Numbered from the stretch's first letter, positions 3,469-56,151 are shown. The stretch: DNA of 64,000 bases from a bacterium (GCA_030629005.1 DAOVPV010000001.1:130429-194428), one strand, 5' to 3'. The notes: generated by a model not told the origin, from the sequence alone. Translations and numbers: made by a program.

Positions 3469-4224
3469 ATGAATAATACTTTTTTCTTAGCGATTCAAGG
3501 CAGTCACTCTGCTCTAGATATTTCTCTTTATAACGATTCTAAGCTTATAAACAATCAAACTGAAGATAATTTTAAAGCAAGCTCTAAACTAATCCCAATA
3601 ATTAAAGACTTGTTAAACAAAAACAATCTTGTTTTGGACGATTTAAGTTTTATTGCTATAGATCAAGGCCCCGGCGCCTTTACATCCCTGCGCGTAACAA
3701 TAGCAACAGTCAATGGACTAGCTTTTGCCGGCAAAATTCCATTAATTGGAATAGATGGTCTAGAATCATTATCCCAACAAAGTTCAAATAATTTGGATAA
3801 AAATCAAAGTTTTGATTTGTTAATAACACTTCTAAATGCCTATAATAACGACGTTTATTTTAAAATAAATAAAATTTCTGATAATAAATTAATTGATATT
3901 CAAAATGATTTCGAAGAAAAAAAATATATAAAAATAGATTTATTGCTCAATTATTTAAAAGAAAATTTCACTAATAAAAAAATTGTTTTCACAGGCAATG
4001 GAGTAAATCTTCACAAAGATTTAATATTAGAGAAATTACAAAACTCCTGCAATGTCTCATTTTTAGATATAACAAATTCAAATTCAGAACAAATCGCAAA
4101 AATGGCTTTGGATGTATGGAAGAAACATTTAATGTTATGGAAAAACGATAAAGATAAAATTAACTTTAAGCTTCAACCTTTATATTTAAAGTCTCAAAAT
4201 TTTACCATTCAATCTAAAAAGTAA
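3469..4224 (+). CDS. tsaB: tRNA t6A biosynthesis protein TsaB-like
   Basis: IAIDQGPGAFTSLRVTIATVNGLAF matches the TsaB GPGSFTGLR signature. Length about 250 aa. Confidence 0.75.
   Translation: MNNTFFLAIQGSHSALDISLYNDSKLINNQTEDNFKASSKLIPIIKDLLNKNNLVLDDLSFIAIDQGPGAFTSLRVTIATVNGLAFAGKIPLIGIDGLESLSQQSSNNLDKNQSFDLLITLLNAYNNDVYFKINKISDNKLIDIQNDFEEKKYIKIDLLLNYLKENFTNKKIVFTGNGVNLHKDLILEKLQNSCNVSFLDITNSNSEQIAKMALDVWKKHLMLWKNDKDKINFKLQPLYLKSQNFTIQSKK
4116..4136 (+). repeat. 21-nt dispersed motif copy (ATGGAAGAAACATTTAATGTT, 19/21)
   Basis: Read directly from the sequence. Inside tsaB, sense, coding KKHLML. Confidence 0.85.
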
Positions 4225-4236
4225 AACCAGCCTTTT

Positions 4237-5022
4237 TTACCTAAAAAGACTTCTAAACATACCAAGCCCCAAAGCTACAGCATGCTCAGCTCGTAATATT
4301 GTTGTCGTTAAAGAAACAGAATTAAATTTGTTTTCTTTTAAAAGGTTAACTTCTAAATCTGTAAAGCCGCCCTCTGGTCCAAAAAACAAAACGATTTTAT
4401 TGTTTTTACAATCATCCAACTCTGAAATAAGACTTGTTATAACTTGACCGTCTAAATCGAAAAATATTTTATGAATATTAGAACTATCAAATTCTGTTAA
4501 AAAATTAGAAAAAGAAATTGGTGCACAAATCTCTGGTAAAACAAAATTCTTAGACTGCTCACAAGCAGCAATCATAATTTTTTTTAATCTAGATCTTTCT
4601 TGTTCAAAGTTAAACTTACTATAAGATTTATGCGCAACTATCGGCAAAATCTTTGTAGCACCCATAGCCGCAGCGCTGTAAACAATTTCTTCTAATGCCT
4701 GTCTTTTTACAACACTAGGACATAAAATTATTTCTGGATATATTTTTTTATTCTCATTTTTTTCTAAGATTTTAAAATAGATAGTTTTATTATTTTTAAA
4801 CGTTTGCTCTAATAGCTCGATCTTAATATTAAAATTGTCATCAAAAAGAATTACCTTATTGTCTAACTTATTTAATCTCAAGACTTGAGTAACACGAGTA
4901 TGTATTGCTTTGTTTTTTATTTCTAATACAGAATTTTGGATAAGGTCACTCAGATAATCGGAAAAAACATTTAATGTTCTAAATAAATCTTCTAAATAAA
5001 TAGAAAATATATGTTTACTCAT
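4237..5022 (-). CDS. rsmE: 16S rRNA (uracil1498-N3)-methyltransferase RsmE
   Basis: C-terminal GPEGGFTDLEV...LRAEHA motif typical of the RsmE SPOUT fold. Confidence 0.8.
   Translation of the reverse strand: MSKHIFSIYLEDLFRTLNVFSDYLSDLIQNSVLEIKNKAIHTRVTQVLRLNKLDNKVILFDDNFNIKIELLEQTFKNNKTIYFKILEKNENKKIYPEIILCPSVVKRQALEEIVYSAAAMGATKILPIVAHKSYSKFNFEQERSRLKKIMIAACEQSKNFVLPEICAPISFSNFLTEFDSSNIHKIFFDLDGQVITSLISELDDCKNNKIVLFFGPEGGFTDLEVNLLKENKFNSVSLTTTILRAEHAVALGLGMFRSLFR
4958..4978 (+). repeat. 21-nt dispersed motif copy (TCGGAAAAAACATTTAATGTT, 20/21)
   Basis: Inside rsmE, antisense to the gene (codes RTLNVFSD). Confidence 0.85.
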
Positions 5023-7336: not shown

Positions 7337-8455
7337 ATGTTTATTAAAAAAATTAAAAATTTGCTAATTATAATGTTATTGGCTTTTTGCCAACCTGTTT
7401 TGTATTCAATGCAACAAGAAACAACTATTACAAAATACAGGACAGAATATCCTGTTTTCGAAGATACTCTTCAGCAAAATGCTATTACACTTATAAAAAT
7501 AATTAGCAAAAATGGTGCAGAAAAATTAGTTTGTGAAGTTCAATTTGAACAAAAAACAAAAAACGGGGGCCGAACAATCAATGCAGCATGTTCTTACTTT
7601 AGACCATACATAATAAAAGATAAAAAACGACTTTATTTTGATCCAAAAGATAACTCTAATCTATTCGCAAAAGAGTTAAATTTTATTAAAAGTGCTGAAA
7701 AATGCCCTAACATAATTTCATATATAGCTCATATAAATATACCAGAAACGCAAACTTATTGTATTCTATCAGAATTAGCAAAAACAGATTTAAACTCTTA
7801 TATATTTAAAAATGAATTTGAATTAAACAAATCATTTGAAACTAAATTAAATATAGCAATAGACTCAATAAGCGGAATCTTGTACATGCATAATCAAAAG
7901 AAAGTGCATAGAGATATAAAGCCAGCTAATATGGTTTTAGTTATAAATGAAAGTGGAACCATTACTGCAAAATTGATTGATTTTACATTTTTTAAAGAAA
8001 TCCCTCCAGGCGAAACATGCATTTTAACAAAAGAATTTATGGGAAGTTTTGAATTTACAGCCCCAGAAAATATAATTCAACAAGCAAACAGAAATTATCT
8101 AACAATATCTGAAGCAAATGATATTTATGCCTTTGGTGTAACACTTTATATGCTTTTTTATGAAAAGCCTTTTGACCAAGAATTAAAAGATATATTTGCA
8201 GAACAAAATAGCCTTGACCCCAAAAAAGTAACTTTTAAAAATAGAAAATATCATAATTTTTACTTTGACCAATTAATAAATGAAAATTGGAAACCTCAAC
8301 TTAACGATTCTTTAGTACATCCAACAATAAACAAAATTATATCTGATTGTTGGAATCCTGATCCAACGAGACGTCCAAGGGCAAGAATTATTTTAGACAA
8401 ATTAAACATTTTAAAAAAAATATTAAAGTCAGATGAAAAAGAAACTGAAATATAA
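7337..8455 (+). CDS. Eukaryotic-like Ser/Thr protein kinase with N-terminal signal peptide
   Basis: HRDIKPANMVL catalytic loop, DFT (DFG-like), TAPE (APE) and a downstream DIYAFGV motif. Hydrophobic N-terminus. Confidence 0.75.
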   Translation: MFIKKIKNLLIIMLLAFCQPVLYSMQQETTITKYRTEYPVFEDTLQQNAITLIKIISKNGAEKLVCEVQFEQKTKNGGRTINAACSYFRPYIIKDKKRLYFDPKDNSNLFAKELNFIKSAEKCPNIISYIAHINIPETQTYCILSELAKTDLNSYIFKNEFELNKSFETKLNIAIDSISGILYMHNQKKVHRDIKPANMVLVINESGTITAKLIDFTFFKEIPPGETCILTKEFMGSFEFTAPENIIQQANRNYLTISEANDIYAFGVTLYMLFYEKPFDQELKDIFAEQNSLDPKKVTFKNRKYHNFYFDQLINENWKPQLNDSLVHPTINKIISDCWNPDPTRRPRARIILDKLNILKKILKSDEKETEI

Positions 8456-9464: not shown

Positions 9465-11101
9465 TGCCCAAAAGCTTTTGCCAGATCCAAGTGCTCTTTA
9501 ACAACTTTGTCATTAGGATTTATGCCTAATGCAATCTCAAATATTTTTTCAGACTCTCCAATCTGACCCATCTTAAACAAAACATACCCTTTTGTATCCA
9601 TATAATAATAAGATGTTGGCTGATATTTTAACGCTAAATCTGCATACTTTAAAGCATCATCTAATTTCTTATTCATTTGAGCATAAAAATAAGCTAATAG
9701 ATTGTAATTAGATGGATATACCGGTTCATATTTTAAAGCTGTTAATAATATATTTTCTACATTATTGTAATTTCTGTTTGAAAAATGAATATAAGCCGTT
9801 TGAAATAATATCTTAGATTTTAAAGCAGAATCTTTTGTTACATCAAACAACTTTTTACAATAAAACAACGTTCCTTTTGTATCTTCCTTTTCGAAGTTTA
9901 AATCGATTAAAGCAGATAAAATTAATTCATTAGAACTCTTTTTTTCTACGTCTTGCAAAATATTTATAATATTTTTTACCTTTATACCATTGTGCCTTAG
10001 TAAAAGCAAAACTTGTATCAGCTGTTTATTTTCAGGTTCATCTTGTAACCAACAGTTTAAAGAGTCCAGGGCGTCCTTAAATTTACGTTGAGCAATCAAC
10101 ATTTCTATTTTTAATAATTTAGCATCATTAAATTTAGGATTACTTTTAATTAAACCTTCTATTAACTTGAATGCAGCATCATTCTTACCGGAATGCCATT
10201 TTATTAATGCCAAGTCAAAACTCTGAGCCGGTGTTTTATTTTTTATTTTTTCCAAAATAACAACAGCTTCATCAAATCGCTTGGACATAAACAATAATCG
10301 TATAAGCTGTTTTTCTACAGGCTCGTCTGCACCAACAATAGCTAAGAATCGTTGATAGCCAAAAACAGCATCCTTTATTTGACCTAATTGTTCTTGCAAA
10401 ATAGATCTTAACAACAAACCTTTATCAAAATCCGGAAATAATTCTAAACTTTTATTAACAAACTTTAACGCTTCTGGGGTTTGTTCTTTTTGTAAGTATA
10501 TTTTTGAAATCAAAAAATAAAATAAGAAATACTTAGATTGTAAATTTTCATTTTTTAAACAACTATTTATAAACGTTAAAGCCTCGTCTAACTTAGAATT
10601 TTTTATAAGACCAACAGCCTTAAAGTAAAGTAACTGAATGTCGTTTGGATGTTGTTTTATCAATTTATTTAGAAATGCAGCAGAATTTTGTCCCTTCCCC
10701 ATATAAAAATAAGATTGAGCAAATATTTTTTCTATCTCCAAATTACCTTTAAAAGCTCTTTTTATTTTAATGGGCAATTTTACAATTGCATCAAACTGGC
10801 TTGTAGTAAACAAAAATCTTATATAATTATCGTAGAAATAAATACACGACTCTGACTTTTTTAATTTTTCGAACTTTAATATTGCAGAATCATATTTTCC
10901 AGTCATATAATCAACACTACCAGATAAATAATGTTGATAATTTCTAGCATCTCGACCTAGGTCTTTTTTTATATATTCTAATGTTATACCAGCACCATTA
11001 ATTTCTTGAATATCAGCAAAACCTACAATAAATAAACCGCTCAAAATTATATTAAACAAAAAAAACTTCTGCATCATTACCCTCTTTTTGTTTTTAGACA
11101 A
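9461..11101 (-). CDS. Tetratricopeptide-repeat (TPR) protein with signal/anchor segment
   Basis: Repeated ~34-aa A/Y/L-patterned helical units (e.g. ALKYADLALKYQPTSYYYMDTKGYVLFKMGQ). Overlaps murG by 4 nt. Confidence 0.7.
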   Translation of the reverse strand: MSKNKKRVMMQKFFLFNIILSGLFIVGFADIQEINGAGITLEYIKKDLGRDARNYQHYLSGSVDYMTGKYDSAILKFEKLKKSESCIYFYDNYIRFLFTTSQFDAIVKLPIKIKRAFKGNLEIEKIFAQSYFYMGKGQNSAAFLNKLIKQHPNDIQLLYFKAVGLIKNSKLDEALTFINSCLKNENLQSKYFLFYFLISKIYLQKEQTPEALKFVNKSLELFPDFDKGLLLRSILQEQLGQIKDAVFGYQRFLAIVGADEPVEKQLIRLLFMSKRFDEAVVILEKIKNKTPAQSFDLALIKWHSGKNDAAFKLIEGLIKSNPKFNDAKLLKIEMLIAQRKFKDALDSLNCWLQDEPENKQLIQVLLLLRHNGIKVKNIINILQDVEKKSSNELILSALIDLNFEKEDTKGTLFYCKKLFDVTKDSALKSKILFQTAYIHFSNRNYNNVENILLTALKYEPVYPSNYNLLAYFYAQMNKKLDDALKYADLALKYQPTSYYYMDTKGYVLFKMGQIGESEKIFEIALGINPNDKVVKEHLDLAKAFGH

Positions 11102-11517: not shown

Positions 11518-11590
11518 AGAGCCTCTAACAACAAAAAATATTAATTTTCAAATTTGCTACACTAACATTTTTAGCATAAAAATAAAAAGA

Positions 11591-11729
11591 ACAAAACTTG
11601 TTTCATACTAATACAGCTAAATATCTTTATTAATAAATCAAAAGAACTATTCAAATTAATTACACGCCACATCACTTCTACTACTACTAGCTCTTTCTCT
11701 CCCAAAAACCTTAAGTAAATCGTTTATGA
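11591..11729. repeat. 139-bp direct repeat, left copy (pairs with 13371..13509)
   Basis: Aligned by eye at an offset of exactly 1780 bp, with about 8 mismatches. Covers the 3' end of the repeat-protein gene, the spacer, and a truncated MKQV... start. Confidence 0.9.
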
Positions 11730-13386
11730 TCTTTCTGACCCCCGCCCTTTTTTCATTCGACAATAGCTTAAATCCCTCAAAAGTTTTTTTAAATTTATTT
11801 GCTTTTAACTCTATTTTTATTTTTTTTAAATAATTATAGAAATTATTATTCAACATTGTTTCTTCTTCTATCTTCCCATATTTTTTTTCATATAACTTAA
11901 TTACAAAGCCACAGAACAAAAATCTTTTTGATGCCTTATCAAGCTTAGCATCATCTTTTTCTAATAATTTTATTGCTAATATTACATCTTTATCCAAAGA
12001 AGCTTGCTGTTTACTTAATCTTTCGTTTGATTTATGAATCATATATAATAAAACACTCGCAAACCTGCGACCCAATCCCTCATTTAGTTTTTTTGATTGT
12101 AAACCATCCTGCGACAAAATATTTTTATTTGCATTTAACCCCTCTGGGCTCAAACTTTTAGAGACTTTTATATCCAACTCAGCCAAACCACCTTTCTTTA
12201 AAACCTCCTTTTCCAATATTTCTTCCGGCCCATCTAAATATTTATCTACCTCAAGCCTTCTCTTGTTCTTCTCTTTTGATGATAACTTTTTAAAACGTAA
12301 TAAAGACCTGTATAAAGAATAATATGTGGCACTTATTCCATTTTCTGCCAAATAACTTTCAAAATCTTTTGCATGAAGCTGAGTCTTTTTTGTTATCTCT
12401 CCAAACTTAATTTCATATAATTTAATTAAAAGCCATAGTTCCATCTTTAATCTACATCTACCGTTGTTTTTCTTCCTACTATCTTCCAATTCTTTTATCG
12501 CAACGATTATATTTTCTTCTTCTGATGACATTTCTTCCAGCCCATCTAAATATTTATCTACCTCAAGTCTTCTTTTATTCCTATTTTCTGGTGATAACTT
12601 TTTAAAACGGAATAAATACCTGCGTAAAGAAAAATATGCGACACTTATTCCATTTTCTGCCAAATAACTTTTAAAATCTTTTACATTGAACCGAGTCTTT
12701 TTCGTTATCTCTCCAAACTTAATTTCATATAATTTAATTAAAAGCTCTGATTCCACCCTTAATCTATACCTAACGCCATTTTTCTTCCTACTATCTTCCA
12801 GTTCTTTTATCACAACTATTATATTTTTTTCTTCTGGTGATAATTCTTCCGGCAACATTTCTTCCGGTAATGACTTTTTAAAACGGAATAAAAAACATCG
12901 TAAAAAACCATTTGTAACACTTATTCCATTTTCTGCCAAATAACTTTCAAAATCTTTTGCATGAAACCGAGTCTTTTTTGTTATCTCTCCAAACTTAATT
13001 TCATATAATTTAATTAAGAGCTCTAATTCCACCTTTAATCTATACTTACCGCCATTTTTCTTCCTACTATCTTCCAGTTCTTTTATCGCAACTATTATCT
13101 TTTTTTCTTCTGATGATAACTTTTCCGGCGACACTTCTTTCGATGATATTTCTTCCGGCGATACTTCTTCCGGCGAATTACTAATACAATCTTCTTTTGA
13201 AAAAACTAATTCGAAATACTCTTCGTCTGAAAGAACACTATCTAAATCTGGACCAGGACCTTGAAAATCTAAAAACAAATCCGTGTCACACTCAACTAGC
13301 GATAAATCCATCGGTAAAACTTGTTTATAAACAGTTAAAAAAAACAACAAAAATAAAATTTTCGTTTTCAACAAAACTTGTTTCAT
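11656..13386 (-). CDS. Secreted protein with three ~92-104-aa tandem repeats plus a degenerate fourth
   Basis: ORF track 11656..13485. I prefer the ATG at 13386 (MKQVLLKTKILFLLFFL signal peptide), because the upstream extension falls in duplicated 3'-end DNA. The repeat unit contains IKELEDSRKKN...LLIKLYEIKFGEITKKT...YLAENGIS. Confidence 0.6.
   Translation of the reverse strand: MKQVLLKTKILFLLFFLTVYKQVLPMDLSLVECDTDLFLDFQGPGPDLDSVLSDEEYFELVFSKEDCISNSPEEVSPEEISSKEVSPEKLSSEEKKIIVAIKELEDSRKKNGGKYRLKVELELLIKLYEIKFGEITKKTRFHAKDFESYLAENGISVTNGFLRCFLFRFKKSLPEEMLPEELSPEEKNIIVVIKELEDSRKKNGVRYRLRVESELLIKLYEIKFGEITKKTRFNVKDFKSYLAENGISVAYFSLRRYLFRFKKLSPENRNKRRLEVDKYLDGLEEMSSEEENIIVAIKELEDSRKKNNGRCRLKMELWLLIKLYEIKFGEITKKTQLHAKDFESYLAENGISATYYSLYRSLLRFKKLSSKEKNKRRLEVDKYLDGPEEILEKEVLKKGGLAELDIKVSKSLSPEGLNANKNILSQDGLQSKKLNEGLGRRFASVLLYMIHKSNERLSKQQASLDKDVILAIKLLEKDDAKLDKASKRFLFCGFVIKLYEKKYGKIEEETMLNNNFYNYLKKIKIELKANKFKKTFEGFKLLSNEKRAGVRKIINDLLKVFGRERASSSRSDVACN
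12217..13110 (-). repeat. Intragenic tandem repeat, three units of 276-312 bp
   Basis: The landmark CTTATTCCATTTTCTGCC recurs at about 12332, 12644 and 12920. The protein repeats are about 80% identical. Confidence 0.85.
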
Positions 13387-13509
13387 TTTAATACAGCTAA
13401 ATATCTTTATTAATAAATCAAAGGAACTATTCAAATTAATTACACGCCACATCACTTCTACAATTACTAGTTCTTTCTCTCCCAAAAACCTTAAGTAAAT
13501 CGTTTATGA
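13371..13509. repeat. 139-bp direct repeat, right copy (pairs with 11591..11729)
   Basis: Contains the real start of the repeat-protein gene plus a relic 3' end (...INDLLKVFGRERTSNCRSDVACN stop) of a lost upstream paralog. Confidence 0.9.
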
Positions 13510-13773
13510 ATCTTTTGCGCCCTATACGTAAACATTATATTATCACCTTAAATCAAGGACTAATCAGCTTACAAAAACACTTAAATAAATCAAAAGCCCT
13601 CTCTGCTAAAAAAAACTAATTTAAAAAGCAACCCCTTGTTTTGAAATATAGCGACACAAATAAACTTGAATTATTATAAAACTTAAATTAAATTAATAAT
13701 TTAGATATTTTTGTATAAAATTTATTACAGATTGAATCTAATAATTTATTGATAAAAAACATAAGGACCTAAG

Positions 13774-15684
13774 ATGGAAAATAAAATAAGCCAAAAAAAA
13801 CTCCTACAATTAAAACAGGTCGCACTAAATTTAAGAGTGAACAGTATAAAAGCAACAACAACCAGCAAATCCGGACACCCAACAACATGCATGGCAATAT
13901 CTGATTTAATAAGCACAATATTTTTTCATTTCTTAAAATACGACATTAAAAATCCCAAAAATCCAAATAATGATAGATTTATTTTATCTATAGGACATGC
14001 TATACCAATAATTTATGCAGCCTGGAAAAACTTAGGAGTTATTTCAGAACAAGATTTATTAAAGCTTAGAAAATTTACTTCAAACCTAGAAGGCCACCCT
14101 ACACCACGCTTTACATACAATGAAGCAGCAACCGGCTCTTTAGGCCAAGGTTTAGGAATTGGTGTTGGGATGGCATTAAATGCTAAACATGACAATTTAG
14201 ATTATAAAACATATGTCATGATAGGAGATGGCGAGGCAGCTGAAGGCTCTATCTGGGAAGCCGCAGAATTAGCCTCTCATTATAAATTAGACAATCTAAT
14301 CACAATTTTAAACTGTAACAGACTTGGCCAATCAGGAGAAAGTATACATGGCCATGATACAGAAAAATTCACAAAAAAATTTGAAGCTTTTGGATTTAAA
14401 ATAATCCAAATAGACGGTCATAACATAGAAGAAATTATAAATAGTATAAACATTGCACATGCAACAAAAAACCAACCAATTGCAATTATTGCAAAAACAT
14501 TAAAAGGCTCCGGACTTAAAGAAATAGAAAATAAAAACAACTATCACGGCAAACCATTTAAACAAGAAGAATTAGAAAATATAATAAAAGAGTTAGAAAA
14601 TAATTTTGGTTTAAAAGTTACAGAAAAGATAGACTATTCACCAACTCTACCAACAACATCAAATATCAATCTAGAAAAATCAGAAGAAACATTTGGTGTT
14701 AAAGAAATAAAAATAGATTTAGAAAACGATATAAATACAAAGACATTTGAGAAAAACGAAAAAATAGCAACTCGCAAAGCGTTTGGCTTTGCATTAGAAG
14801 CTCTAGGTAAAGCTAGTAAAGAAATTTTTGTACTCGACGCTGATGTACAAAATTCAACATTCACAATTTTTTTTGCCAAAAAGTTTCCAGATAGGTTTAT
14901 ACAATGCTTTATCGCTGAACAAAATATGGTAAGTGTTGCTACTGGACTAGAATCTAGGGGTAAAATTCCATTCGCAGCAACATTTGGAGCCTTTTTTTCT
15001 AGAGCATTCGATCAAATTAGAATGGCTGGAATTGGACGAAACGCATTACGACTGTGTGGATCTCACTGTGGCGTTTCTATTGGAGAAGATGGACCATCTC
15101 AAATGGCATTAGAAGATATTGCAATGTTTAAAAGCATTCCTAATTCTATTGTCTTGTATCCAAGCGATGGAGTTAGCGCATACAAGTTAACAGAAATCAT
15201 GGCAAATTATCATGATGGTGTTTCTTATTTAAGAACATCCAGGCCAGAAACTCCGAATCTATATAACAAAAACGAAAAATTCAAAATTGGTGGCTGCAAA
15301 GTATTAAAACAAAGTAATAATGATAAAGTTTGCATAATAACAGCAGGCATAACGCTTCATGAAAGTTTAAAAGCCCACGAAGAACTTTTAAAACAAAATA
15401 TAAATGTTTCTATAATCGATTTATATTCTGTAAAACCACTAGATAAAAAAACAATATTAGAAATTGCTAAAAAATCTGAAAATAAAATTATTACAGTTGA
15501 AGATCACTATATTCACGGAGGCCTAGGTGAATCTGTAGCAAGCGAACTTTCTAATGAAAATATAAAAATAGAAAAACTTGCTGTTACAAAAATTCCAAGA
15601 TCAGCCAGCAAAGAAAAACTTTTAGAATTTGAAGAAATAAATACAAGTGCTATTATAGACAAAGTCATATCAATAGTTTTGTAA
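13774..15684 (+). CDS. tkt: Transketolase
   Basis: SGHPTTCMAISD, GDGEAAEGSIWEA (ThDP motif) and GEDGPSQMALEDIAMF motifs. 636 aa. Confidence 0.9.
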   Translation: MENKISQKKLLQLKQVALNLRVNSIKATTTSKSGHPTTCMAISDLISTIFFHFLKYDIKNPKNPNNDRFILSIGHAIPIIYAAWKNLGVISEQDLLKLRKFTSNLEGHPTPRFTYNEAATGSLGQGLGIGVGMALNAKHDNLDYKTYVMIGDGEAAEGSIWEAAELASHYKLDNLITILNCNRLGQSGESIHGHDTEKFTKKFEAFGFKIIQIDGHNIEEIINSINIAHATKNQPIAIIAKTLKGSGLKEIENKNNYHGKPFKQEELENIIKELENNFGLKVTEKIDYSPTLPTTSNINLEKSEETFGVKEIKIDLENDINTKTFEKNEKIATRKAFGFALEALGKASKEIFVLDADVQNSTFTIFFAKKFPDRFIQCFIAEQNMVSVATGLESRGKIPFAATFGAFFSRAFDQIRMAGIGRNALRLCGSHCGVSIGEDGPSQMALEDIAMFKSIPNSIVLYPSDGVSAYKLTEIMANYHDGVSYLRTSRPETPNLYNKNEKFKIGGCKVLKQSNNDKVCIITAGITLHESLKAHEELLKQNINVSIIDLYSVKPLDKKTILEIAKKSENKIITVEDHYIHGGLGESVASELSNENIKIEKLAVTKIPRSASKEKLLEFEEINTSAIIDKVISIVL

Positions 15685-31329: not shown

Positions 31330-31623
31330 TCATCGTATCCTTTTCAAAACCTTATTATATATCTCTTTACGATGAGCAACTGCAATAACTAAAATTATTA
31401 ATTCATTCTTTTTTACAGCATAAACAATTCTGTAATTTCCAGATCTTAATCTATACAAATCATTCTTAAATTTTAATTTTTTTATATTTAAATTGGCTTT
31501 TAACTCCGCAAGCTCCTTGATTTTTTTTAAAATATATAAGTTATCTGATTTATTTATTTTTTTTAAATCTTTTCTTGCTTCACCGAGAAAAATAATCTCA
31601 TATTTACATGATTTATTAATCAT
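31330..31623 (-). CDS. RelE/ParE-family type II toxin
   Basis: LYRLRSGNYRIVYAVKKNELIILVIAVAHRKEIY is the classic RelE/StbE C-terminal block. Overlaps the upstream antitoxin by 8 nt. Confidence 0.8.
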   Translation of the reverse strand: MINKSCKYEIIFLGEARKDLKKINKSDNLYILKKIKELAELKANLNIKKLKFKNDLYRLRSGNYRIVYAVKKNELIILVIAVAHRKEIYNKVLKRIR

Positions 31624-33835: not shown

Positions 33836-34398
33836 ATTTTTAACATCAAAGAAATAAATAATATTTTAACCAAATCAACAAAGAAAAATAAAAACATATT
33901 TAGATTTAGTTTAACAAAAAATGAAAGCCACGCCACTCCAAAAGTATGCAAAACAAATAATCCCATCAACAAAATAAAAAATCGAAAGAAACATTTAATG
34001 TTGCTAAATATAATATTTTTTTTATACAAATCTTTTAAAAATGAAATCAAAAGCGTAGAAAAAACAAAACCAATTAAATAGCCACCAGTGGGACCGAGTA
34101 AATGCAATAAGCCTGATTTTAATCCAAAAAAGACAGGAGCACCACAAACACCCTGCAAAATCCATAAAAGACTAGCAAAAAATGCAAGTCTACCAAACAA
34201 CATCGCAGTTAAAAAAATAACAAATGTTTGTAATGTTATTGGTATCCAATTAAAAGGCAACGGTATATAAACTTGCGAAGACAAAGCATATAACCAAGAT
34301 AAGGTAATAGTAAAAACAATTTTATTTTTATAAATTTTTGTTAAAAAAGGGATAAAGAATAAAATTGTTTTTTTTATAGTTTGATTCATAAATATCAC
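33805..34398 (-). CDS. bioY: Biotin transporter BioY
   Basis: Multi-TM protein with the GPTGGYLIGF signature. The C-terminal SSRTGCGI-stop is encoded by the GC-rich hairpin element. Confidence 0.8.
   Translation of the reverse strand: MIFMNQTIKKTILFFIPFLTKIYKNKIVFTITLSWLYALSSQVYIPLPFNWIPITLQTFVIFLTAMLFGRLAFFASLLWILQGVCGAPVFFGLKSGLLHLLGPTGGYLIGFVFSTLLISFLKDLYKKNIIFSNIKCFFRFFILLMGLFVLHTFGVAWLSFFVKLNLNMFLFFFVDLVKILFISLMLKIVSSRTGCGI
33982..34002 (+). repeat. 21-nt dispersed motif copy (TCGAAAGAAACATTTAATGTT, 21/21)
   Basis: Inside bioY, antisense to the gene (codes NIKCFFRF within a TM region). Confidence 0.9.
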
Positions 34399-40234: not shown

Positions 40235-40296
40235 TCCTTCGGAAGAACACACCCGGCCTTCGCCAAAGGCTATGGCGGGCACGGCGAGTGTGGGAA
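40235..40296. repeat. GC-rich mosaic element between atpD and atpC
   Basis: TCCTTCGGAAGAACACACCCGGCCTTCGCCAAAGGCTATGGCGGGCACGGCGAGTGTGGG. The GGCGGGCACGGC module also occurs (reverse-complemented) at 63897..63908. Confidence 0.7.
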
Positions 40297-40308
40297 CATT
40301 TAATATTA

Positions 40309-42686: not shown

Positions 42687-42707
42687 TCGGAAGAAACATT
42701 TAATGTT
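42687..42707 (+). repeat. 21-nt dispersed motif copy (TCGGAAGAAACATTTAATGTT, 21/21)
   Basis: Intergenic, 15 nt upstream of the ATG at 42722. Confidence 0.9.
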
Positions 42708-42721: not shown

Positions 42722-43873
42722 ATGACAACAACTATTTTATCTAAAAATACAAGCAAAAAAGCTATAAACTTCTCCGTAGAAAAACGAAAAATTAATTTTT
42801 CCGTTTTAGAAGAAGCTTACAATCAATACAACAAACAAAATGTACCCTTTCTTTTAAAATTACGAAAAGAAATGCGTGAAAAAAAACCTTATGCTGGCTT
42901 AAAAATTTTTCATAATATTCCATTAACAATGGAAACAGTATTAAAAGTTATACCATTAATAGAAGGTGGCGCAGATGTTACTGTTTCTAATATGACAGGA
43001 ATGCCGCCACAAGAAAAAGCTCTAGATATTCTCAAGAGAGCAAATGTAAAAGTCCAATTGTCTCATGACATAAAAGAAAGATATGATGTTTATCTTGACT
43101 GTGGAGCAGAATTGGTAAATGCACCAGCTCCAAAGTTAGGAACCATAGAATTAACAGGAACCGGAACAATTGTTTATAAAAAAACCAACCTATCTTATTC
43201 TGTTATTTCTGTAGACGATAGCAAAATAAAATTCTTAGAAGGGATTGGTACTGGTGATAGTGGAGTCAAAGCTATAACAGAGCTTACCGGCAAACCTATA
43301 AATAACAAAAAATTCTTGGTATTTGGATACGGTAAAATAGGCAATGGTGTTGTAAAATCACTACTACAACACACAAAAAACGTGGTAGTTATAGACACAA
43401 ATTCCAAATTAATTGATTCACTAAATAGTTCTGGAATTAAAGCAATTAATGCGAACAAAATATCATTGATAAAAAAAGAACTAACAGATACCTTTTGCGC
43501 AATAACAAGCACAGCAGTTAAAGGCTGTATTTCTAAAAACTTTGATTCTAAAGATTTTAATAACATTATTCTTGCCAATCTTGGAGCAGAAGATGAATTT
43601 GGGAACAAATTTAAGCAAGAAAATGTTCTTAACAAAAAGTTTCCTGTAAATTTTGCCATAAAAGAACCGACAACCTTACGCTTTCTAGACCCTGTTTTTT
43701 ATGCACATAACAAAGCAATAGATTTATTAATAAATAATAAAACAAAGCCAGGTTATCATCCATATCCAGAAAAACGATCTATTGAACTTATTAAACAATG
43801 GCAAGAATTCCATCCAAATGATCCACTATTTAGCTCAAAAGAAATTTCAAAATTAATAAATAAACAATATTAG
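42722..43873 (+). CDS. Divergent, short S-adenosylhomocysteine hydrolase-like NAD-binding protein
   Basis: KPYAGLKIFHNIPLTMETVLKVIPLIEGGADVTV resembles SAHH KPLKGARIAGCLHMT..TAVLIETL..GAEV. KKFLVFGYGKIGNGV is a Rossmann motif. At 383 aa it is shorter than the usual 430-470. Confidence 0.45.
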   Translation: MTTTILSKNTSKKAINFSVEKRKINFSVLEEAYNQYNKQNVPFLLKLRKEMREKKPYAGLKIFHNIPLTMETVLKVIPLIEGGADVTVSNMTGMPPQEKALDILKRANVKVQLSHDIKERYDVYLDCGAELVNAPAPKLGTIELTGTGTIVYKKTNLSYSVISVDDSKIKFLEGIGTGDSGVKAITELTGKPINNKKFLVFGYGKIGNGVVKSLLQHTKNVVVIDTNSKLIDSLNSSGIKAINANKISLIKKELTDTFCAITSTAVKGCISKNFDSKDFNNIILANLGAEDEFGNKFKQENVLNKKFPVNFAIKEPTTLRFLDPVFYAHNKAIDLLINNKTKPGYHPYPEKRSIELIKQWQEFHPNDPLFSSKEISKLINKQY

Positions 43874-43996
43874 GCCAGGAACCCATTCAGACTTTCTATT
43901 TGCTTTTTATCAGATATTTTACAAAAATAAATCCACTCCGGTTGCAACTATACAAATCGTATATAACCTATTCTTACATAAATCATTGGGGTGCAT

Positions 43997-44512
43997 ATGA
44001 AAAAGACGTTAGTATTAACAGTAATTATTTCTTTAAATCTATTAAACTTTAGCAATACAATAAAAGCTTATCCAGCAAGAAACAACATTTTTCGAAGAGC
44101 AAACGATCCCATAGACATATTCGTTTCATATCTAGAATATTATCTTCTACCACAAGTGGAAAGAAAGCTTATTGACTATATCAACGACAACAGAGAGAAT
44201 CTTAAATCTTTAAGCGGCATCAAAAGACTTTTTAAATTAAAAATAGATCGAATAAAAGAAGCTCTAAGAAAAGAAAAATACTTTGTAGAAAAACAATGTC
44301 CAATTACTCTGGAAGAATATAATAACAACACAGAGTTAGCATTATTTAAACCTTGCAGACACTCTATGTCCAAAGAAGCCTTTGATGTATATACAGTAGA
44401 TTTTTTTGAAAATCACGAAAATGGTAATCCAGCTTGTCCAATATGTAGACAAGAAATACACGAGACAAAGTTTTTAAAATATTCAAAAGTAAAGCTATTA
44501 AGACATGAATAA
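43997..44512 (+). CDS. Secreted RING-variant / U-box / SP-RING-like putative E3 ligase
   Basis: Signal peptide. QCPITLEEY-x11-PCRH-x25-CPIC retains only the second zinc site (C,H,C,C). The first site is U-box/SP-RING-like (CPIT). Confidence 0.55.
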   Translation: MKKTLVLTVIISLNLLNFSNTIKAYPARNNIFRRANDPIDIFVSYLEYYLLPQVERKLIDYINDNRENLKSLSGIKRLFKLKIDRIKEALRKEKYFVEKQCPITLEEYNNNTELALFKPCRHSMSKEAFDVYTVDFFENHENGNPACPICRQEIHETKFLKYSKVKLLRHE

Positions 44513-44524: not shown

Positions 44525-44596
44525 ATAACTAGATCCTGAAACAACCCTTCGATACACGCTGCGCGCACTCAGGACAGGGTTCAGCGTGACAGAAAT
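44525..44596. repeat. GC-rich element related to 27210..27300 (one arm plus a 33-nt GC-rich insert)
   Basis: ATAACTAGATCCTGAAACAA[...]GTTCAGCGTGACAGA matches the reverse complement of 27258..27298, ATAACTAGACCCTGAAACAAGTTCAGGGTGACAGA. Confidence 0.7.
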
Positions 44597-52623: not shown

Positions 52624-53538
52624 TTAAACCCCTATTGCTTCTATAACATTCTCTGTATCTAAAACAATCTCTATATTTTCAACACTCTCTACTGTCTTAA
52701 ATGAATTCGTAAAAGAACCAAAAAGTTTTCCTAATCTTTTTAATAAATAATAAAATTTTCTAGCTTTAGTTTTTAATTCAGTAAAGTCTATAGAAATTAA
52801 AGGATTACTTTCCGCATAAGCCTCTATAAATTGTTTTACAAGATAAAGATTATCAGATCTTCTAATTTTTATTTTCTTAAAAATATTGTTAACCGCAACC
52901 TCTTGCCATGAATCTACTAACTCATCAAATTCATCTTCCCCAATTTCCATCTGAAACATTTCAATGGCTTCTTGAACAACTTGCTCGCCTTTACCTAATG
53001 CTATAAAAATAATTTTTTCTTGTTGAGGAGCTTTTGAAGGAACTTCTTCTTTTGCCTCTACTTTTGCATCCTCAGAAACTGACTTTACAATACTATCTGC
53101 TATATCTTGAGCAACCTGAGAAATAGTGTCTTGAACCGCATTATCAACAACATTAACATTAAATGTTTCTTCCGATTGTGCTATTTTTTCTGCTGCAACC
53201 GGAACAACCTCTTCAGGACGAATTTCTTTAGTTTTAACTCTTCTTTCTAAAAATCTAAATAATTTATTAGCATTTCTATCTACATTATATCTTTTTTTGC
53301 TAAATCTTTTCTTAGAAGAAGCAAATTTACTTACAGAAAAGGTTGTTCCCTTAATTTTTCTATCGGCAACTTCCATTAACTCGCTAAATAAAGTAAATAA
53401 AGATTTCTGCATTACATAATCATATTTTACTCTTTTGGTATGAGGCCCGAAGACATAAATTATTTTATAATGAGTCGCAGAAACACTCGAAATAGAAAAA
53501 GCAATAAATAACAACGATAAATATTTTACAAACTTCAT
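52624..53538 (-). CDS. Hypothetical secreted protein
   Basis: Signal peptide. No recognisable domain. Contains the only minus-oriented 21-nt motif copy. Confidence 0.4.
   Translation of the reverse strand: MKFVKYLSLLFIAFSISSVSATHYKIIYVFGPHTKRVKYDYVMQKSLFTLFSELMEVADRKIKGTTFSVSKFASSKKRFSKKRYNVDRNANKLFRFLERRVKTKEIRPEEVVPVAAEKIAQSEETFNVNVVDNAVQDTISQVAQDIADSIVKSVSEDAKVEAKEEVPSKAPQQEKIIFIALGKGEQVVQEAIEMFQMEIGEDEFDELVDSWQEVAVNNIFKKIKIRRSDNLYLVKQFIEAYAESNPLISIDFTELKTKARKFYYLLKRLGKLFGSFTNSFKTVESVENIEIVLDTENVIEAIGV
53155..53175 (-). repeat. 21-nt dispersed motif copy, reverse orientation (21/21)
   Basis: The plus strand reads AACATTAAATGTTTCTTCCGA. It is sense to the minus-strand gene and codes SEETFNV. 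Confidence 0.9.
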
Positions 53539-53688
53539 AAAACTATCCCCCTATAAAAAGAATATAATAAAATATTTTTAGCTTAAAGAGCTTAGCAATT
53601 TGTACGATCTGTTTACAATTATATTATTTAAAAATAAAAAACAACCTTAAATACAGGCTATTTTCATAGAGCACCGATAAATTAATAT

Positions 53689-56151
53689 TTAAGCCCCTGA
53701 CAAAATCTCAAAATTATCCACAATCCCTACATTTTTAAGAATATTCTCCTCATAAAATGCACGATAAAATTGGAACTTTAAAATACCATTATCATCCTTA
53801 AACAATTTCATGTAAGAAGGGATATAATGAAACCTACCATCTTCATGTTTAATAGTAGCTAAAGTAAAAATATCTGGTTTTACAAGCAAAGCCCGTGGTG
53901 ATTTGGAATGTAAACAATATTTATACTTAATATCTAATAAAGGTAAGTCTTTATTCTTAGCAAAACTCTTTCTACGAGAAATTCCTGCATATATTTCATG
54001 AAGCTCTAAATCTCTCTTACTTAAAGACCTCAAATTAACACCTGTACCCATTATTATAGAATGCAAGATCCTTCCATTTACTTTTATTTCATTTCTTTCA
54101 TAAATGTGATTGTGTCCAGATAAATAAACATCTATTTGTGAATCCAAAATAAGTTTTGCTATATACTCAAAGGCATTCAATTTTTTGACTCCGAATAATT
54201 TGTGATTAAAATCATCTACTTCAACACTACCCACATCCTTTAATATATTTTTAAATTTTCCCTTATAAGCACCTTCTTTATATGCAATATTTAACAAACC
54301 AGGATGAGAATATTTATTAAAATTAATTAAAGGTAAATGTGCATATACAACAACAAAATCAACTTCACCACAAGCCTTTTTAGCATTGGCCATATTAATT
54401 AATTGCTCTATTTTTCTAAGTAAACTCGGAGTATAATTAAAGTTATACTTCTTACCAATCTCTTCTGAAGAAAGAGGTAAGTTTAAATATAAAACACGAT
54501 CTTTTATAAACCAATTGGACGAAGAACTAACTTGCTCTACAGGTGAAAGTTTATTTTTATCACACTTAACTTGATTAAAAATATAATTAAAAGTTGGCTC
54601 TTTCGTTATAACATCATAAGGAGACTTGAATCGAACCCCACCAAAATATGCAATGTCATGAGGAATCCCAAGAGCAGAAGTAAACACCTTGCCATTCATA
54701 TTTCCCATTGCATTAAAAGCCTTAAACCATTCAAATGGAAATTCTCTTTCTCTATTACTTCGTCCAGAATAAGAAACAAAATCACCAATACTAATATAAG
54801 CTGCACCATTTGTAGGTAAAATAGAATTTAAAAACCAAGCAACCGACCCCCTTTTCCCCTCATTAAAAATTTGGATATTATCTCTTACCTGAAAAGTGTA
54901 TTGTCCTTGAATATCACTAAAAAAATAAACTGGTTCTTTCGCATTAAAAATATCCGGAACTTTAATAATTTTTTCATTATTGCCATACAAAATTTTTATT
55001 TCTTTTCCATCAAGTCCTGATAAAGGTACGTTATAAATACACATCATAGATAAATTACAAACATCAAAACTCAAATCCTGATCATCAGATAATATAAATT
55101 TAATATTATTAGGCGAAATACCCCAAAAAATAACTTTTAGAAATAATTCATTATTATAAGGTGCAATAAAAATTGTCGGCTCTCTAGTAGGAATTAATTT
55201 AACCAAAGAAGTAACTCCGGCTCTACCAAGTTTTTTTTGCATATCACCAATTTCAGGATCAAAAACAAAAAGATTTATAGGCCGCAATGTTTTTTTTACA
55301 AATCGTACTAAACCACTTCTAGAACATGGCTTAAATTCGGAAGAAAAATTTGATGTTTTTGGTTGAACAAAATAATATCGCCTAGCATTCAAGCCTGTTC
55401 CCGCAACAACGCAAGCTCCATCCAAAATATTTTCGAAAGAAACATTTAATGTTTTTGAACGTTTTTTAAAATCAAAAAACTGAAGTTTTTTTTGCTTATC
55501 CACCCTTTGAATATAACTAAGAACATTTGCCTTATTAGTTCTAACTCCATCCTCAGTTTTGCTATAAACAGGCCTGCTATAATCAACTAAAATAACATTT
55601 AACGGAACAAGATCTGAAAAAAATAAAACTGAACGCCTATTTTTTTTCAGCATATTATTTATTTTTTGCTTTGCTGTTTTTTTATAAAAAGCAAGATCAC
55701 CTAAAACCAAAATATAATCAGAATCATTATTAAAAGCCTGAATTCCAAACTGCTTTCCTCCACCATCCTGAAAAAACCGAATTGAAAATTCATGATCTTC
55801 ATAATAGGCAACTATATCTAAAGGTAATTTAGGATTTATATGCTCAGGAATAAAAAATTCAAGATTATCTTTTTTAAATTTTGTAGAAAAAAATTCTCGT
55901 ATAACAGCTGTAACAATTCTACAAATTTTTCTATGATCTCTTTTATACAATTTTCCTAATTTATCTAGCTTAATAGACTTTTCGCGTGCAAATCCACCCT
56001 TAACATCAAAACAATAGTTTTTAGGTAAAAAGACTGCTACTTTTTTTATTACTTTTTGATCTTGAACAGATATTTCAGTAGAAAATAATGGATTAAAATT
56101 TAATAAAAACAAACACAAAAATAAACTTATTAAACTTTTTTTTAAATTCAT
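53689..56151 (-). CDS. Large secreted calcineurin-like metallophosphoesterase-domain protein
   Basis: LVLGDLAF (GD), GNMNG (GN-like), VVVYAHLPL and YLSGHNHIYER (GH.H) motifs. Signal peptide. Confidence 0.5.
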   Translation of the reverse strand: MNLKKSLISLFLCLFLLNFNPLFSTEISVQDQKVIKKVAVFLPKNYCFDVKGGFAREKSIKLDKLGKLYKRDHRKICRIVTAVIREFFSTKFKKDNLEFFIPEHINPKLPLDIVAYYEDHEFSIRFFQDGGGKQFGIQAFNNDSDYILVLGDLAFYKKTAKQKINNMLKKNRRSVLFFSDLVPLNVILVDYSRPVYSKTEDGVRTNKANVLSYIQRVDKQKKLQFFDFKKRSKTLNVSFENILDGACVVAGTGLNARRYYFVQPKTSNFSSEFKPCSRSGLVRFVKKTLRPINLFVFDPEIGDMQKKLGRAGVTSLVKLIPTREPTIFIAPYNNELFLKVIFWGISPNNIKFILSDDQDLSFDVCNLSMMCIYNVPLSGLDGKEIKILYGNNEKIIKVPDIFNAKEPVYFFSDIQGQYTFQVRDNIQIFNEGKRGSVAWFLNSILPTNGAAYISIGDFVSYSGRSNREREFPFEWFKAFNAMGNMNGKVFTSALGIPHDIAYFGGVRFKSPYDVITKEPTFNYIFNQVKCDKNKLSPVEQVSSSSNWFIKDRVLYLNLPLSSEEIGKKYNFNYTPSLLRKIEQLINMANAKKACGEVDFVVVYAHLPLINFNKYSHPGLLNIAYKEGAYKGKFKNILKDVGSVEVDDFNHKLFGVKKLNAFEYIAKLILDSQIDVYLSGHNHIYERNEIKVNGRILHSIIMGTGVNLRSLSKRDLELHEIYAGISRRKSFAKNKDLPLLDIKYKYCLHSKSPRALLVKPDIFTLATIKHEDGRFHYIPSYMKLFKDDNGILKFQFYRAFYEENILKNVGIVDNFEILSGA
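55433..55453 (+). repeat. 21-nt dispersed motif copy (TCGAAAGAAACATTTAATGTT, 21/21)
   Basis: Inside the metallophosphoesterase gene, antisense to it (codes TLNVSFEN). Confidence 0.9.

Follow-up and report, generated by a model that had tools for sequence, protein, structure and literature searches.

A dispersed 21-nucleotide motif in a Dependentiae genome is probably a non-autonomous insertion element

A dispersed motif in unrelated genes

The DNA analyzed here, a 64-kb stretch that we refer to as the window, comes from a member of the Dependentiae (TM6), an uncultured intracellular bacterium. At least 14 sites in the window, counting one split copy, carry a 21-nucleotide unit that occurs in two variants with either A or G at position 4 (Table 1). 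The host gene assignments made in an earlier note on this DNA are supported by Pfam for tsaB, rsmE and the metallophosphoesterase and by homology for aspS, and those of the FKBP and bioY genes agree with the Pfam families of their syntenic orthologues.

Searching the window with TCGRAAGAAACATTTAATGTT yields 13 matches at three or fewer mismatches, compared with 0.04 expected from dinucleotide-preserving shuffles, a control that upholds the earlier estimate that such a motif is far rarer by chance than is seen. Mismatch counts are bimodal, with 13 sites at zero to three, none at four and eight at five (1.8 expected), and an independent repeat finder also recovered the TCGRAAGAAACATTTAATGTT family in the window. 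The 11 copies listed previously all have correct coordinates and strands (seven are exact, three carry one mismatch and the copy at 4116 carries two), but the list overlooked diverged copies at 14680 (three mismatches) and 55337 (two). Among sequences previously considered degenerate relatives, the one at 30427 is a chance likeness within conserved coding sequence; that at 40294-40307 is indeed related to the motif but is really the right half of the split copy. A five-mismatch match at 39092 in atpD was rejected as another chance likeness in conserved coding sequence.

The unit spans seven codons, and of its six reading frames four are open. Eleven of the 14 copies are internal to open reading frames, all host reading frames remain open, and the coding copies use these frames as described before. 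Genic copies persist only as a tolerated seven-residue addition to a linker, a terminus or a signal peptide. The hairpin predicted for the 21-mer is weak (5 bp, -1.9 kcal/mol, z = -1.5).

The split copy consists of TCGGAAGAA (40239-40247), a 47-nucleotide GC-rich hairpin-like element (40248-40294) and AACATTTAATATT (40295-40307), the last of which adjoins the likely start codon of atpC. The atpD-atpC spacer of a relative, L040, is only 5 nucleotides long and has neither the motif nor the GC-rich element, a comparison indicating that the spacer in the window is enlarged by the motif and by a GC-rich element nested in the motif copy. An inverted relative of the GC-rich element (83%) is located at 63896-63930. 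The copy at 42687 borders a block of two genes that L040 lacks.

Table 1. Copies of the 21-nucleotide unit in the window
Host gene or location	Coordinates	Strand	Details
tsaB	4116..4136	+	sense, WKKHLML; 2 mismatches, starts AT not TC
rsmE	4958..4978	+	antisense, aa 15-22, RTLNVFSD; 1 mismatch
Fused transketolase, inter-domain linker	14680..14700	+	diverged, 3 mismatches, SEETFGV
aspS	21357..21377	+	exact, sense, SKETFNV, aa 426-432
Small lipoprotein gene, 5' end or just upstream	25861..25881	+	exact
Lipoprotein signal peptide n-region	25900..25920	+	exact, RKKHLML; 39 nt past 25861 copy
Intergenic, adjoins AAGGAG ribosome-binding site of FKBP gene	26107..26127	+	1 mismatch
FKBP lipoprotein, N-terminal linker	26276..26296	+	1 mismatch, SKETFNV
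bioY	33982..34002	+	exact, antisense, NIKCFFR
atpD-atpC spacer	40239..40307	+	split 14th copy, two motif halves around GC-rich insert
Intergenic, 14 nt upstream of start codon of gene 42722-43873	42687..42707	+	exact
Hypothetical gene 52624-53538	53155..53175	-	exact, sense, SEETFNV; sole minus-strand copy
820-aa metallophosphoesterase-like gene	55337..55357	+	antisense, diverged, 2 mismatches
820-aa metallophosphoesterase-like gene	55433..55453	+	exact, antisense, KTLNVSFE; 96 nt from 55337 copy

Filled and empty sites indicate insertion of a fixed unit

Comparison with nearest relatives reveals four clean 21-nucleotide gaps. The tsaB gene of the window is exactly 21 nucleotides (seven codons) longer than the empty site in the closest relative, L044, and aspS carries an exact 21-nucleotide extra that is missing from 13 of 15 orthologues, among them the closest (L036). 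The other two cases are the aspS and histidine kinase genes of L038, each with 21 extra bases relative to L043 (82-85% nucleotide identity). No target-site duplication beyond one ambiguous base is found in these four filled/empty comparisons.

Alignments with orthologues, suggested earlier for aspS, tsaB, rsmE and bioY, are thus clean for the first two, and insertions are likely in rsmE and bioY as well as in the FKBP and lipoprotein genes. BioY has seven extra residues relative to L036 and nine relative to L039, with two alignment gaps or one; the FKBP linker is longer than that of L036, and a diverged copy occupies a similar position in L039; the lipoprotein gene of L036 is without the N-terminal extension. 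At the rsmE copy the protein has seven residues more than most orthologues, and its closest relative has four extra there, which makes this case ambiguous. At 14680, the transketolase linker exceeds those of L036 and L039 by 3-9 residues. We also noted a possible remnant in rsmE of the sister lineage. If it is real, the insertion would be older, and the fact that the window copy is still 20/21 identical would be a hint that selection or conversion maintains the copy.

The ends of the unit are sharp. Information content falls from ~1.6 bits within the 21-mer to ~0.1 bit past either end, conservation is even over all 21 positions, with the 8-nucleotide flank equal to the palindrome, and the 13-nucleotide palindrome never occurs without this flank in the sequences searched. 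Beyond the 21 nucleotides, the copies share no flank similarity apart from a target preference. Specifically, 17 of 21 copies have a G 4 nucleotides downstream of the element (p = 6e-11) and 15 of 21 have an A at the next nucleotide (+5); together with an A-rich flank upstream, this gives an asymmetric preference of AAAW^NNNGA. On the complementary strand the G and A at +4 and +5 correspond to TCNNN 5' of the element. The G at +4 is already present in two of four empty sites. Insertion therefore prefers an A-rich 5' flank followed by NNNGA, and it often occurs near existing copies: 4 of 12 gaps between copies are shorter than 250 nucleotides (P = 0.001).

These sequence comparisons show that a few Dependentiae lineages have acquired insertions of a fixed 21-nucleotide unit at many unrelated sites, and that no target-site duplication accompanies them. 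They bear out the earlier view that conservation is at the DNA rather than the protein level, and they support its suggestion of a tiny mobile-element footprint, since alignment with orthologues shows the seven codons to be clean insertions.

The same site in aspS is filled in two lineages

The aspS copy is located in the linker following the GAD insertion domain, and the window and L038 are filled at the same nucleotide. The window pairs with P0002 and L038 with P0009, and since the aspS sites of both partners are empty, the two insertions are independent. Position 4 of the element also has a different base in each of the two copies. No imported tract was found around the aspS copy, as L038 tracks L043 outside the element and is unlike the window within it. 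A separate 21-nucleotide insertion is present elsewhere in aspS of L039.

Copies are oriented with respect to the replication strand

Twelve of the 13 intact copies are on the plus strand (binomial p = 0.003), or 13 of 14 with the split copy, which confirms the strand bias described previously. The plus strand of the window is C-rich regardless of gene direction, as revealed by third-codon GC skew (-0.35 for plus genes; minus genes, measured on their own coding strand, give +0.44). The plus strand is instead G-rich in L038 and L043, motif orientation is flipped in a lineage with reversed replication of the region, and 17 of 19 copies are borne by the C-rich strand (p = 7e-4). One orientation thus strongly predominates, with TCGRAAGAAACATTTAATGTT on the C-rich strand, and the complement AACATTAAATGTTTCYTTCGA is consequently on the G-rich strand, which is the lagging-strand template under a leading/lagging assignment whose sole basis is GC and AT skew. 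The origin of a complete Dependentiae genome can be located from its GC skew (PMC6561590), and targeting of the lagging-strand template has a precedent among single-stranded DNA transposons (PMC6006769). One of the two exceptions to this rule is the L038 aspS copy, which keeps its orientation relative to the gene though replication direction is reversed, suggesting that the target sequence may help set orientation.

Distribution among lineages is patchy

Our comparisons cover ~70 kb of one genome plus the syntenic loci of relatives, and distribution of the motif among these Dependentiae lineages is patchy. The sister lineage (L036, L040 and L044) has no copies in 58 kb, and L041 and L042 have none in syntenic DNA. 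By comparison, L038 carries five copies in 4.8 kb, L043 carries one in 21 kb, and L039 has a diverged dialect of the motif. The motif is identical across lineages of only 73% nucleotide identity and missing from relatives at 80%. The full 21-mer has no match among GTDB species representatives or viral contigs. It is present in contigs from other samples and studies, and the same copies recur in L045, an independent assembly from this species that is 99.95% identical and 8 SNPs apart, so they are not an assembly artefact. No presence/absence polymorphism was observed between these two near-identical strains.

Alternative explanations

We conclude that the motif is probably a 21-nucleotide non-autonomous insertion element, and that it is most likely selfish rather than functional. 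The three readings offered in the earlier note, namely a chromosome-polarity or uptake-type signal, an operator and a mobile-element footprint, are as a group partly supported.

The best surviving alternative, which we nevertheless regard as unlikely, is that the motif is a replication-oriented chromosomal signal under selection, i.e. a polar site for a translocase, recombination system or replication-associated protein, and that insertion merely creates such sites. Orientation tracks the replication strand in two lineages that replicate the region in opposite directions, the 21 positions are near-invariant even between lineages as divergent as those noted above, and the G at +4, being conserved outside the inserted unit, could belong to a longer functional site. 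However, a housekeeping signal should not be absent from close relatives, and this one is lacking in syntenic DNA of the sister lineage and two further relatives as well as in all GTDB species representatives. The copies are also bunched within a few hundred nucleotides instead of being spaced, and their sharp ends and uniform conservation resemble a product of copying and not a binding site. Known polarity signals (KOPS or Chi-like) are ~5-8 nucleotides long, arise by point mutation and are conserved among related genomes along with a reading protein. The window motif shares their skew to one replication strand, but it is 21 nucleotides long and absent from relatives that are 80% identical. 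Of the earlier chromosome-polarity idea, then, the link between orientation and replication strand stands and the housekeeping role does not.

Uptake sequences of Pasteurellaceae (USS) and Neisseriaceae (DUS) are family-wide motifs that originate through point mutation, number about one per kb and have no bias toward either replication strand. Like them, the motif is short and over-represented, occurs in coding and non-coding DNA and has reading-frame preferences, with all open frames in use. If fragments bearing the motif were preferentially taken up and recombined into the chromosome, its identity in two divergent lineages that were both sampled in one study could be explained, and all TM6 genomes are reported to have type IV pilus genes (PMC4776705). 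We consider this very improbable, because copies are clean 21-nucleotide insertions and not point-mutated homologous sequence, their 12:1 strand bias contrasts with the roughly equal orientations of known uptake sequences, their density of ~1 per 5 kb drops to zero in the sister lineage, and the aspS flanks carry no imported tract. The lineage-patchy distribution is another difference.

An operator or nucleoid-protein site, at which a dimeric DNA-binding protein would bind the palindrome AACATT-T-AATGTT, is equally hard to sustain. The core is a 13-nucleotide palindrome and five copies (25861, 25900, 26107, 40295 and 42687) are within 35 nucleotides of start codons. Yet the asymmetric flank is conserved like the palindrome, which never stands alone, a majority of copies are intragenic in either orientation, a palindromic site would give no strand bias, and close relatives with the same genes lack the motif. 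The insertion origin likewise disfavors this earlier proposal. Finally, chance, segmental duplication, or an assembly or adapter artefact has a negligible probability, as only the low complexity that comes with an AT-rich genome speaks for it, and it conflicts with the shuffles, the unrelated flanks, the uniformly open host frames, the independent assembly and the contigs from other samples and studies.

A candidate mechanism

Insertion of the element is probably catalyzed in trans by an enzyme encoded outside the window, elsewhere in the genome; no gene for a transposase, HUH protein, reverse transcriptase or integrase was found in the window or in the corresponding locus of any compared relative. 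Insertion probably takes place into single-stranded DNA at the replication fork. The enzyme may recognize the small hairpin (AACAT-TAA-ATGTT) plus an 8-nucleotide 3' tail, a geometry that would resemble substrates of HUH/Y1 single-strand transposases and relaxases. A route via RNA or reverse transcriptase would be an equal alternative to an HUH/Y1-like enzyme. Within genes, the element would survive only in stop-free frames.

More tentatively, and with the whole less likely than not, these features could be combined into an active 21-nucleotide element with one hairpin and an 8-nucleotide tail, whose enzyme is specific enough to hit the same aspS nucleotide twice across 27%-divergent lineages. 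The element and its driver would spread horizontally among co-occurring Dependentiae, steadily adding seven-residue peptides to essential proteins. The motif would be among the smallest insertion elements seen in bacteria, and one that often adds exactly seven amino acids to essential proteins.

Relation to known small elements

Among known classes, MITEs can be rejected, as they need terminal inverted repeats, a target-site duplication and ~50-500 bp, and the motif has 21 nucleotides, a palindrome at one end only and no duplication. REPs are extragenic, stable but imperfect GC-rich palindromes with a conserved 5' GTAG head that often form inverted doublets, whereas copies of the motif are mostly intragenic singletons with a TCGR head and a weak stem. 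The motif forms no inverted pairs, its single opposite-strand copy (1 of 14) being 2 kb from the nearest neighbor, and neither the window nor the compared loci of relatives carry a RAYT (Y1 HUH) gene.

IS200/IS605 elements and the REP/RAYT system (HUH Y1) generate no target-site duplication, use a short specific flank, are oriented to the lagging-strand template, rely on recognition of a hairpin plus adjacent bases and lack terminal inverted repeats (PMC6006769). The motif has several traits of this type (PATE-like), including the absence of duplication, the conserved flank and the preference for one replication strand. However, IS200/IS605 elements have two subterminal hairpins, while the motif has room for one weak 5-bp hairpin, and no TnpA or Y1 gene is found in the window or compared loci.

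The closest analogues are the Rickettsia palindromic elements (RPEs) and the small dispersed repeats (SDRs) of cyanobacteria. RPEs are ~100-150 bp long, encode a segment of 30-50 residues and are inserted in-frame in unrelated, often essential genes (PMC10969869). Shared features are an intracellular bacterium, in-frame insertion in unrelated reading frames and a tolerated peptide (PMC10969869). The motif differs in its 21 bp and seven residues and has no sequence relation to RPEs. To our knowledge, strand bias has not been described for RPEs.

Elhai et al. (2008, Genome Res 18:1484; cited in PMC5861425) reportedly proposed that SDR1-8 of Nostoc and related cyanobacteria may be the smallest mobile elements. 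They are said to be dispersed, 21-27 nucleotides long, recognizable as insertions relative to related genomes, nested, restricted to a narrow clade and predicted to form a small hairpin. Reportedly they are mainly intergenic, in heptamer repeats or inside HIP1, and not in-frame in essential genes. We know of no enzyme for SDRs, nor of any description of a replication-strand bias or an AAAW^NNNGA target. SDRs belong to another phylum and have no sequence similarity to the window motif. The motif nevertheless matches SDRs in size, dispersal, presence or absence at orthologous sites, hairpin, clade restriction and nesting, the last in the form of a different GC-rich element within a motif copy.

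A repeated 21-nucleotide element

A search of both strands of the 64-kb window with the motif TCGRAAGAAACATTTAATGTT, allowing up to three mismatches, yields 13 matches, 12 on the + strand and one on the - strand, against a mean of 0.04 in 100 dinucleotide-preserving shuffles. All 11 sites listed in an earlier note, made from the sequence alone, are recovered with the mismatch counts it gave, and the shuffles bear out its estimate that such a motif would occur far less than once by chance. Two diverged copies add to that list, at 14680 (three mismatches) and 55337 (two mismatches). The mismatch spectrum is bimodal, with 13 matches at zero to three mismatches, none at four and eight at five, where 1.8 are expected. 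Two of the five-mismatch matches (30425 and 39092) were rejected as family members; both are conserved coding sequence without extra residues and therefore are chance resemblances. The family also emerges independently from a general repeat finder, and the 13-nt palindrome never occurs without its 8-nt flank. No Rfam family overlaps any copy, the sole Rfam hits being three tRNAs, and no further copy is present in 5.8 kb of additional sequence beyond the window.

The earlier note had also listed 40294-40307 as a degenerate relative. This segment is indeed related to the motif, but it is the right half of a fourteenth copy that is split by a 47-nt GC-rich insert (see table). The same spacer in a relative is 5 nt long and has neither the 21-mer nor the GC-rich element.

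Insertion of the element

In an alignment of aspartyl-tRNA synthetases (AspRS), the peptide SKETFNV stands as an exact seven-residue insertion that 13 of 15 orthologues, the closest among them, do not have. At the DNA level, the filled site in the window reads AAT[TCGAAAGAAACATTTAATGTT]CAA, and the empty site in L036, a contig of the sister lineage, is uninterrupted. The tsaB gene is as clean, with 21 extra bases relative to L044 of the same lineage. Two contigs of a second lineage pair, L038 and L043 (82-85% nucleotide identity), differ by two exact 21-nt gaps, one in aspS and the other in a histidine-kinase gene, both filled in L038, and L039, which carries a diverged dialect of the motif, has a clean 21-nt insertion of that dialect at a second, different site in aspS. 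Extra residues also coincide with the motif in bioY, the FKBP linker, the rsmE N-terminus, a lipoprotein signal peptide and a transketolase linker, where alignments are less clean. Thus, the seven-codon insertion that the earlier note had raised for four genes is clean in aspS and tsaB, and is seen in rsmE and bioY as extra residues in less certain alignments. No target-site duplication is visible in the comparisons of filled and empty sites, where at most one base is ambiguous. These comparisons show that the 21-nt unit was inserted, without target duplication.

At the position of the rsmE copy, the sister gene (L044, 6040-6070) has four extra residues (LLNKF) with 12 of 24 nucleotides identical to the element, which could be a decayed and partly deleted old copy or a coincidence.

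Copies in genes persist only in stop-free frames. Four different frames are in use, in keeping with the earlier claim that conservation acts on the DNA and not on the protein, and the peptide appears in only four proteins among 251 retrieved homologues; constraint at the protein level was rejected on these grounds.

Element anatomy and target signature

A logo of 21 copies shows that all 21 positions are near-invariant save for an A/G dimorphism at position 4, and that information content falls abruptly to background at both ends of the element. Such uniform conservation with sharp ends is typical of a unit that has been copied; in a protein-binding site, conservation would be graded. Flanking the element, 17 of 21 copies have a G at the fourth downstream nucleotide (p = 6e-11, given 13% G) and 15 of 21 have an A at the fifth, while positions -4 to -2 upstream are A-rich. 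Of the four empty sites, those in tsaB and the histidine-kinase gene have this downstream G already, and in aspS it is supplied by a D codon (GAT), the commonest state among orthologues. The G therefore is a pre-existing feature of the target rather than part of the element, and the insertion target is asymmetric.

As a single strand, the unit forms at most a 5-bp stem with a 3-nt loop (-1.9 kcal/mol, z = -1.5). Guidance of insertion by homology, with the downstream 21 nt resembling the element in register, was dropped as a separate claim: the 8.2 identities observed, versus a background of about 6.6, come mostly from the conserved G and A at +4 and +5, and one other offset scores equally high.

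Orientation and spacing

Genes on the plus strand of the window have a GC skew of -0.35 at third codon positions, and genes on the minus strand one of +0.44 when read along their own coding strand; these opposite signs mean that the + strand is C-rich regardless of gene direction. AT skew agrees. The same polarity is found in L036 and L039, and the syntenic block of L038 and L043 has the opposite one. Of the 13 copies in the window, 12 have the motif as written on the C-rich strand, as do four of five in L038 and the single copy in L043, which gives 17 of 19 copies overall (p = 7e-4). Coding copies in the window include seven sense and four antisense to their genes. Orientation thus follows the replication strand, as judged from skew, and not the gene strand, which extends to replication the strand bias reported in the earlier note. 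The G-rich strand is conventionally taken to be the leading strand and the template of lagging-strand synthesis, and it is this strand that carries the complement AACATTAAATGTTTCYTTCGA. In a completely sequenced Dependentiae genome, the origin is located by GC skew (PMC6561590). The strand rule has two exceptions, among them the aspS copy of L038, whose orientation remains the one that the asymmetric target imposes.

The copies occur in clusters, four of 12 gaps being shorter than 250 nt (P = 0.001). For five of the 14 copies, a start codon is within 35 nt. This proximity may come from tolerance at gene starts or from the A-rich target.

Probable independent insertions at one aspS site

L038 and the window carry the element at exactly the same aspS nucleotide. 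In a neighbour-joining tree and by nucleotide identity, the window groups with the AspRS orthologue P0002 and L036, and L038 groups with the orthologue P0009 and L043; both P0002/L036 and P0009/L043 have an empty site. The copies of the window and L038 differ at element position 4 (A versus G) and at +1, and L038 matches L043 immediately outside the element. Import of the L038 insertion from a window-like allele by recombination was rejected because of these differences and the L043-like flank. The alternative of an ancient insertion would call for several precise losses thereafter, and the simplest reading of these sequences is two independent insertions at one hot spot.

Distribution among Dependentiae

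The window is a portion of a 199,620-bp contig, and the analysis covered 64 kb and a further 5.8 kb of this genome, together with about 150 kb from relatives. The AspRS of candidate division TM6 bacterium GW2011_GWF2_28_16 shares 83% identity with that of the window, and all best hits that bear a taxon name are from Dependentiae or Babeliales. In an independent assembly of the same species, L045, obtained from a different sample (study code ZHAN22-2), identity is 99.95% across 15 kb and the copies are the same, which excludes an assembly artefact. No copy with four or fewer mismatches is present in 58 kb of syntenic DNA from the sister lineage (L036/L037, L040 and L044), or in two further relatives, L041 and L042. 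The more distant L038, from the same study and with 73% nucleotide identity to the window, has five copies in 4.8 kb, and its close relative L043 has one in 21 kb. The dialect TYAGAAAAAAYATTKAATRWT of L039 occurs three times (10404-10424 and 12864-12884 on the + strand, 18022-18042 on the - strand). Within Dependentiae, the distribution of the motif is therefore patchy. One dialect copy lies in the FKBP linker, close to the position of the copy in the window.

The full motif is absent from GTDB species representatives, a collection without the source species and its motif-bearing relatives. An exact-pattern scan of this collection gave 33 single 19-mer hits, attributed to chance, from unrelated phyla and all without the TC prefix. 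Viral contigs gave no hits, and metagenomes gave only two singleton contigs with the exact motif (L034 and L035), which look unrelated and whose relation is uncertain. The L034 match is missing the flanking G, and its peptide seemingly belongs to a conserved domain.

Possible mechanism and alternatives

The element may be inserted into single-stranded DNA at the replication fork, by an enzyme that would act in trans. HUH/Y1 single-strand transposases leave no duplication, and have a short specific flank at one end, a hairpin and a lagging-strand-template bias (PMC6006769). The 21-mer resembles them in each of these respects, and its 8-nt tail beside the hairpin ends exactly at the element boundary, as in HUH/Y1 systems. 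It fails several defining features of the REP, IS200/IS605 and MITE families, and no HUH/Y1 single-strand transposase gene was found in the roughly 70 kb covered.

An RNA intermediate is a viable alternative to the single-stranded DNA route. A preference for the lagging-strand template is shared by group II intron retrotransposition, and the proposal for the cyanobacterial repeats reportedly involved an RNA intermediate. Other explanations fit poorly. TM6 bacteria do have type IV pilus genes (PMC4776705), but an uptake sequence is expected to arise by substitution, to lack strand bias and to be common to relatives. A conserved polarity signal should not be missing from a sister lineage that is 80% identical, and a palindromic operator gives no reason for a flank as strict as the palindrome, nor for strand bias. 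Chance or artefact is excluded by the shuffled controls and by L045.

Relation to known repeats

Two known kinds of repeat come closest. One comprises the small dispersed repeats of Nostocaceae, 21-27 nt in length and reportedly described by Elhai et al. in 2008, a study that PMC5861425 cites. The other, the Rickettsia palindromic elements, shares in-frame insertion at unrelated genes but has units of about 150 bp rather than 21 nt (PMC10969869). In the literature consulted on Dependentiae genomes, ankyrin repeats are the only repeats mentioned, and no DNA repeat like the 21-mer is described. Compared with the closest kinds, we rate as new the phylum, the seven-codon in-frame insertion in essential genes, the replication-strand rule, the target signature and the double hit in aspS.

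If our reading is right, the element is about as small as mobile DNA can be. The cyanobacterial repeats left the question of which enzyme moves a unit too small for two transposon ends, and the pairs of filled and empty sites together with the flanking target signature make this question directly testable. As a tool, too, an enzyme able to place a defined 21-mer at AAAW^NNNGA without duplication would be of interest. The insertions show that essential housekeeping proteins (AspRS, TsaB, RsmE and BioY) of a reduced intracellular bacterium are remodelled by seven residues, which bears on annotation, on phylogenetic alignments and on the understanding of how proteins tolerate insertions. As a sharp lineage marker, the motif could serve to track these uncultured bacteria in metagenomes.

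Other features of the window

Coordinates of further features of the window
Feature	Position	Remarks
Ser/Thr protein kinase	7337-8455	eukaryote-like domain
Tandem-repeat region	11590-13522	three repeats of about 300 nt, 75-87% identical
609-aa ORF	11656-13485	contains the tandem repeats; no Pfam match
Paralogous ORFs	15721-17865, 17927-20008	adjacent, about 700 aa; no Pfam match
Ubiquitin C-terminal hydrolase	23651-25681	eukaryote-like domain (weak)
ParE-family toxin gene	31330-31623	
Split copy, left part	40239-40247	TCGGAAGAA; between atpD and atpC
GC-rich element	40248-40294	inverted termini CACAC...GTGTG
Split copy, right part	40295-40307	AACATTTAATATT; between atpD and atpC
Two-gene block	42722-44512	TrkA_N-like NAD-binding domain protein and RING-finger protein
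RING-finger	43991-44512	eukaryote-like domain (weak)
GC-rich element	44544-44592	
Duplicated block, first	56307-56542	ends in tRNA gene 56464-56537
Nucleotidyltransferase and HEPN-like pair	56550-57298	
Small GIY-YIG nuclease gene	57619-57873	
Duplicated block, second	57884-58121	ends in tRNA gene 58043-58116
TamB-like frame	62091-63948	split into ORFs of 391 and 214 aa
GC-rich element	63876-63983	overlaps the split TamB-like region

The short GC-rich elements are 60-70% GC in a 30% GC genome and look like a second family of small inserted elements; the one that breaks up a 21-mer copy has an 83% inverted relative at 63896-63930. The duplicated blocks, of about 235 nt and roughly 91% identical, contain GC-rich segments, and a motif-like sequence with five mismatches at 56285 adjoins the first of them. 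A 153-nt repeat (92%) flanks the tandem repeats. The paralogous ORFs share about 70% nucleotide identity over aligned stretches of 173 and 233 nt, and the sister lineage has one such gene. The two-gene block lies between H+-pyrophosphatase and MltA-like genes, is missing from L040 of the sister lineage and has the motif copy at 42687 at its left edge. The eukaryote-like domains agree with a host-manipulating intracellular lifestyle. The TamB-like frame corresponds to a single 863-aa gene in a relative, and its split could reflect a pseudogene, a sequencing error or a stop codon.
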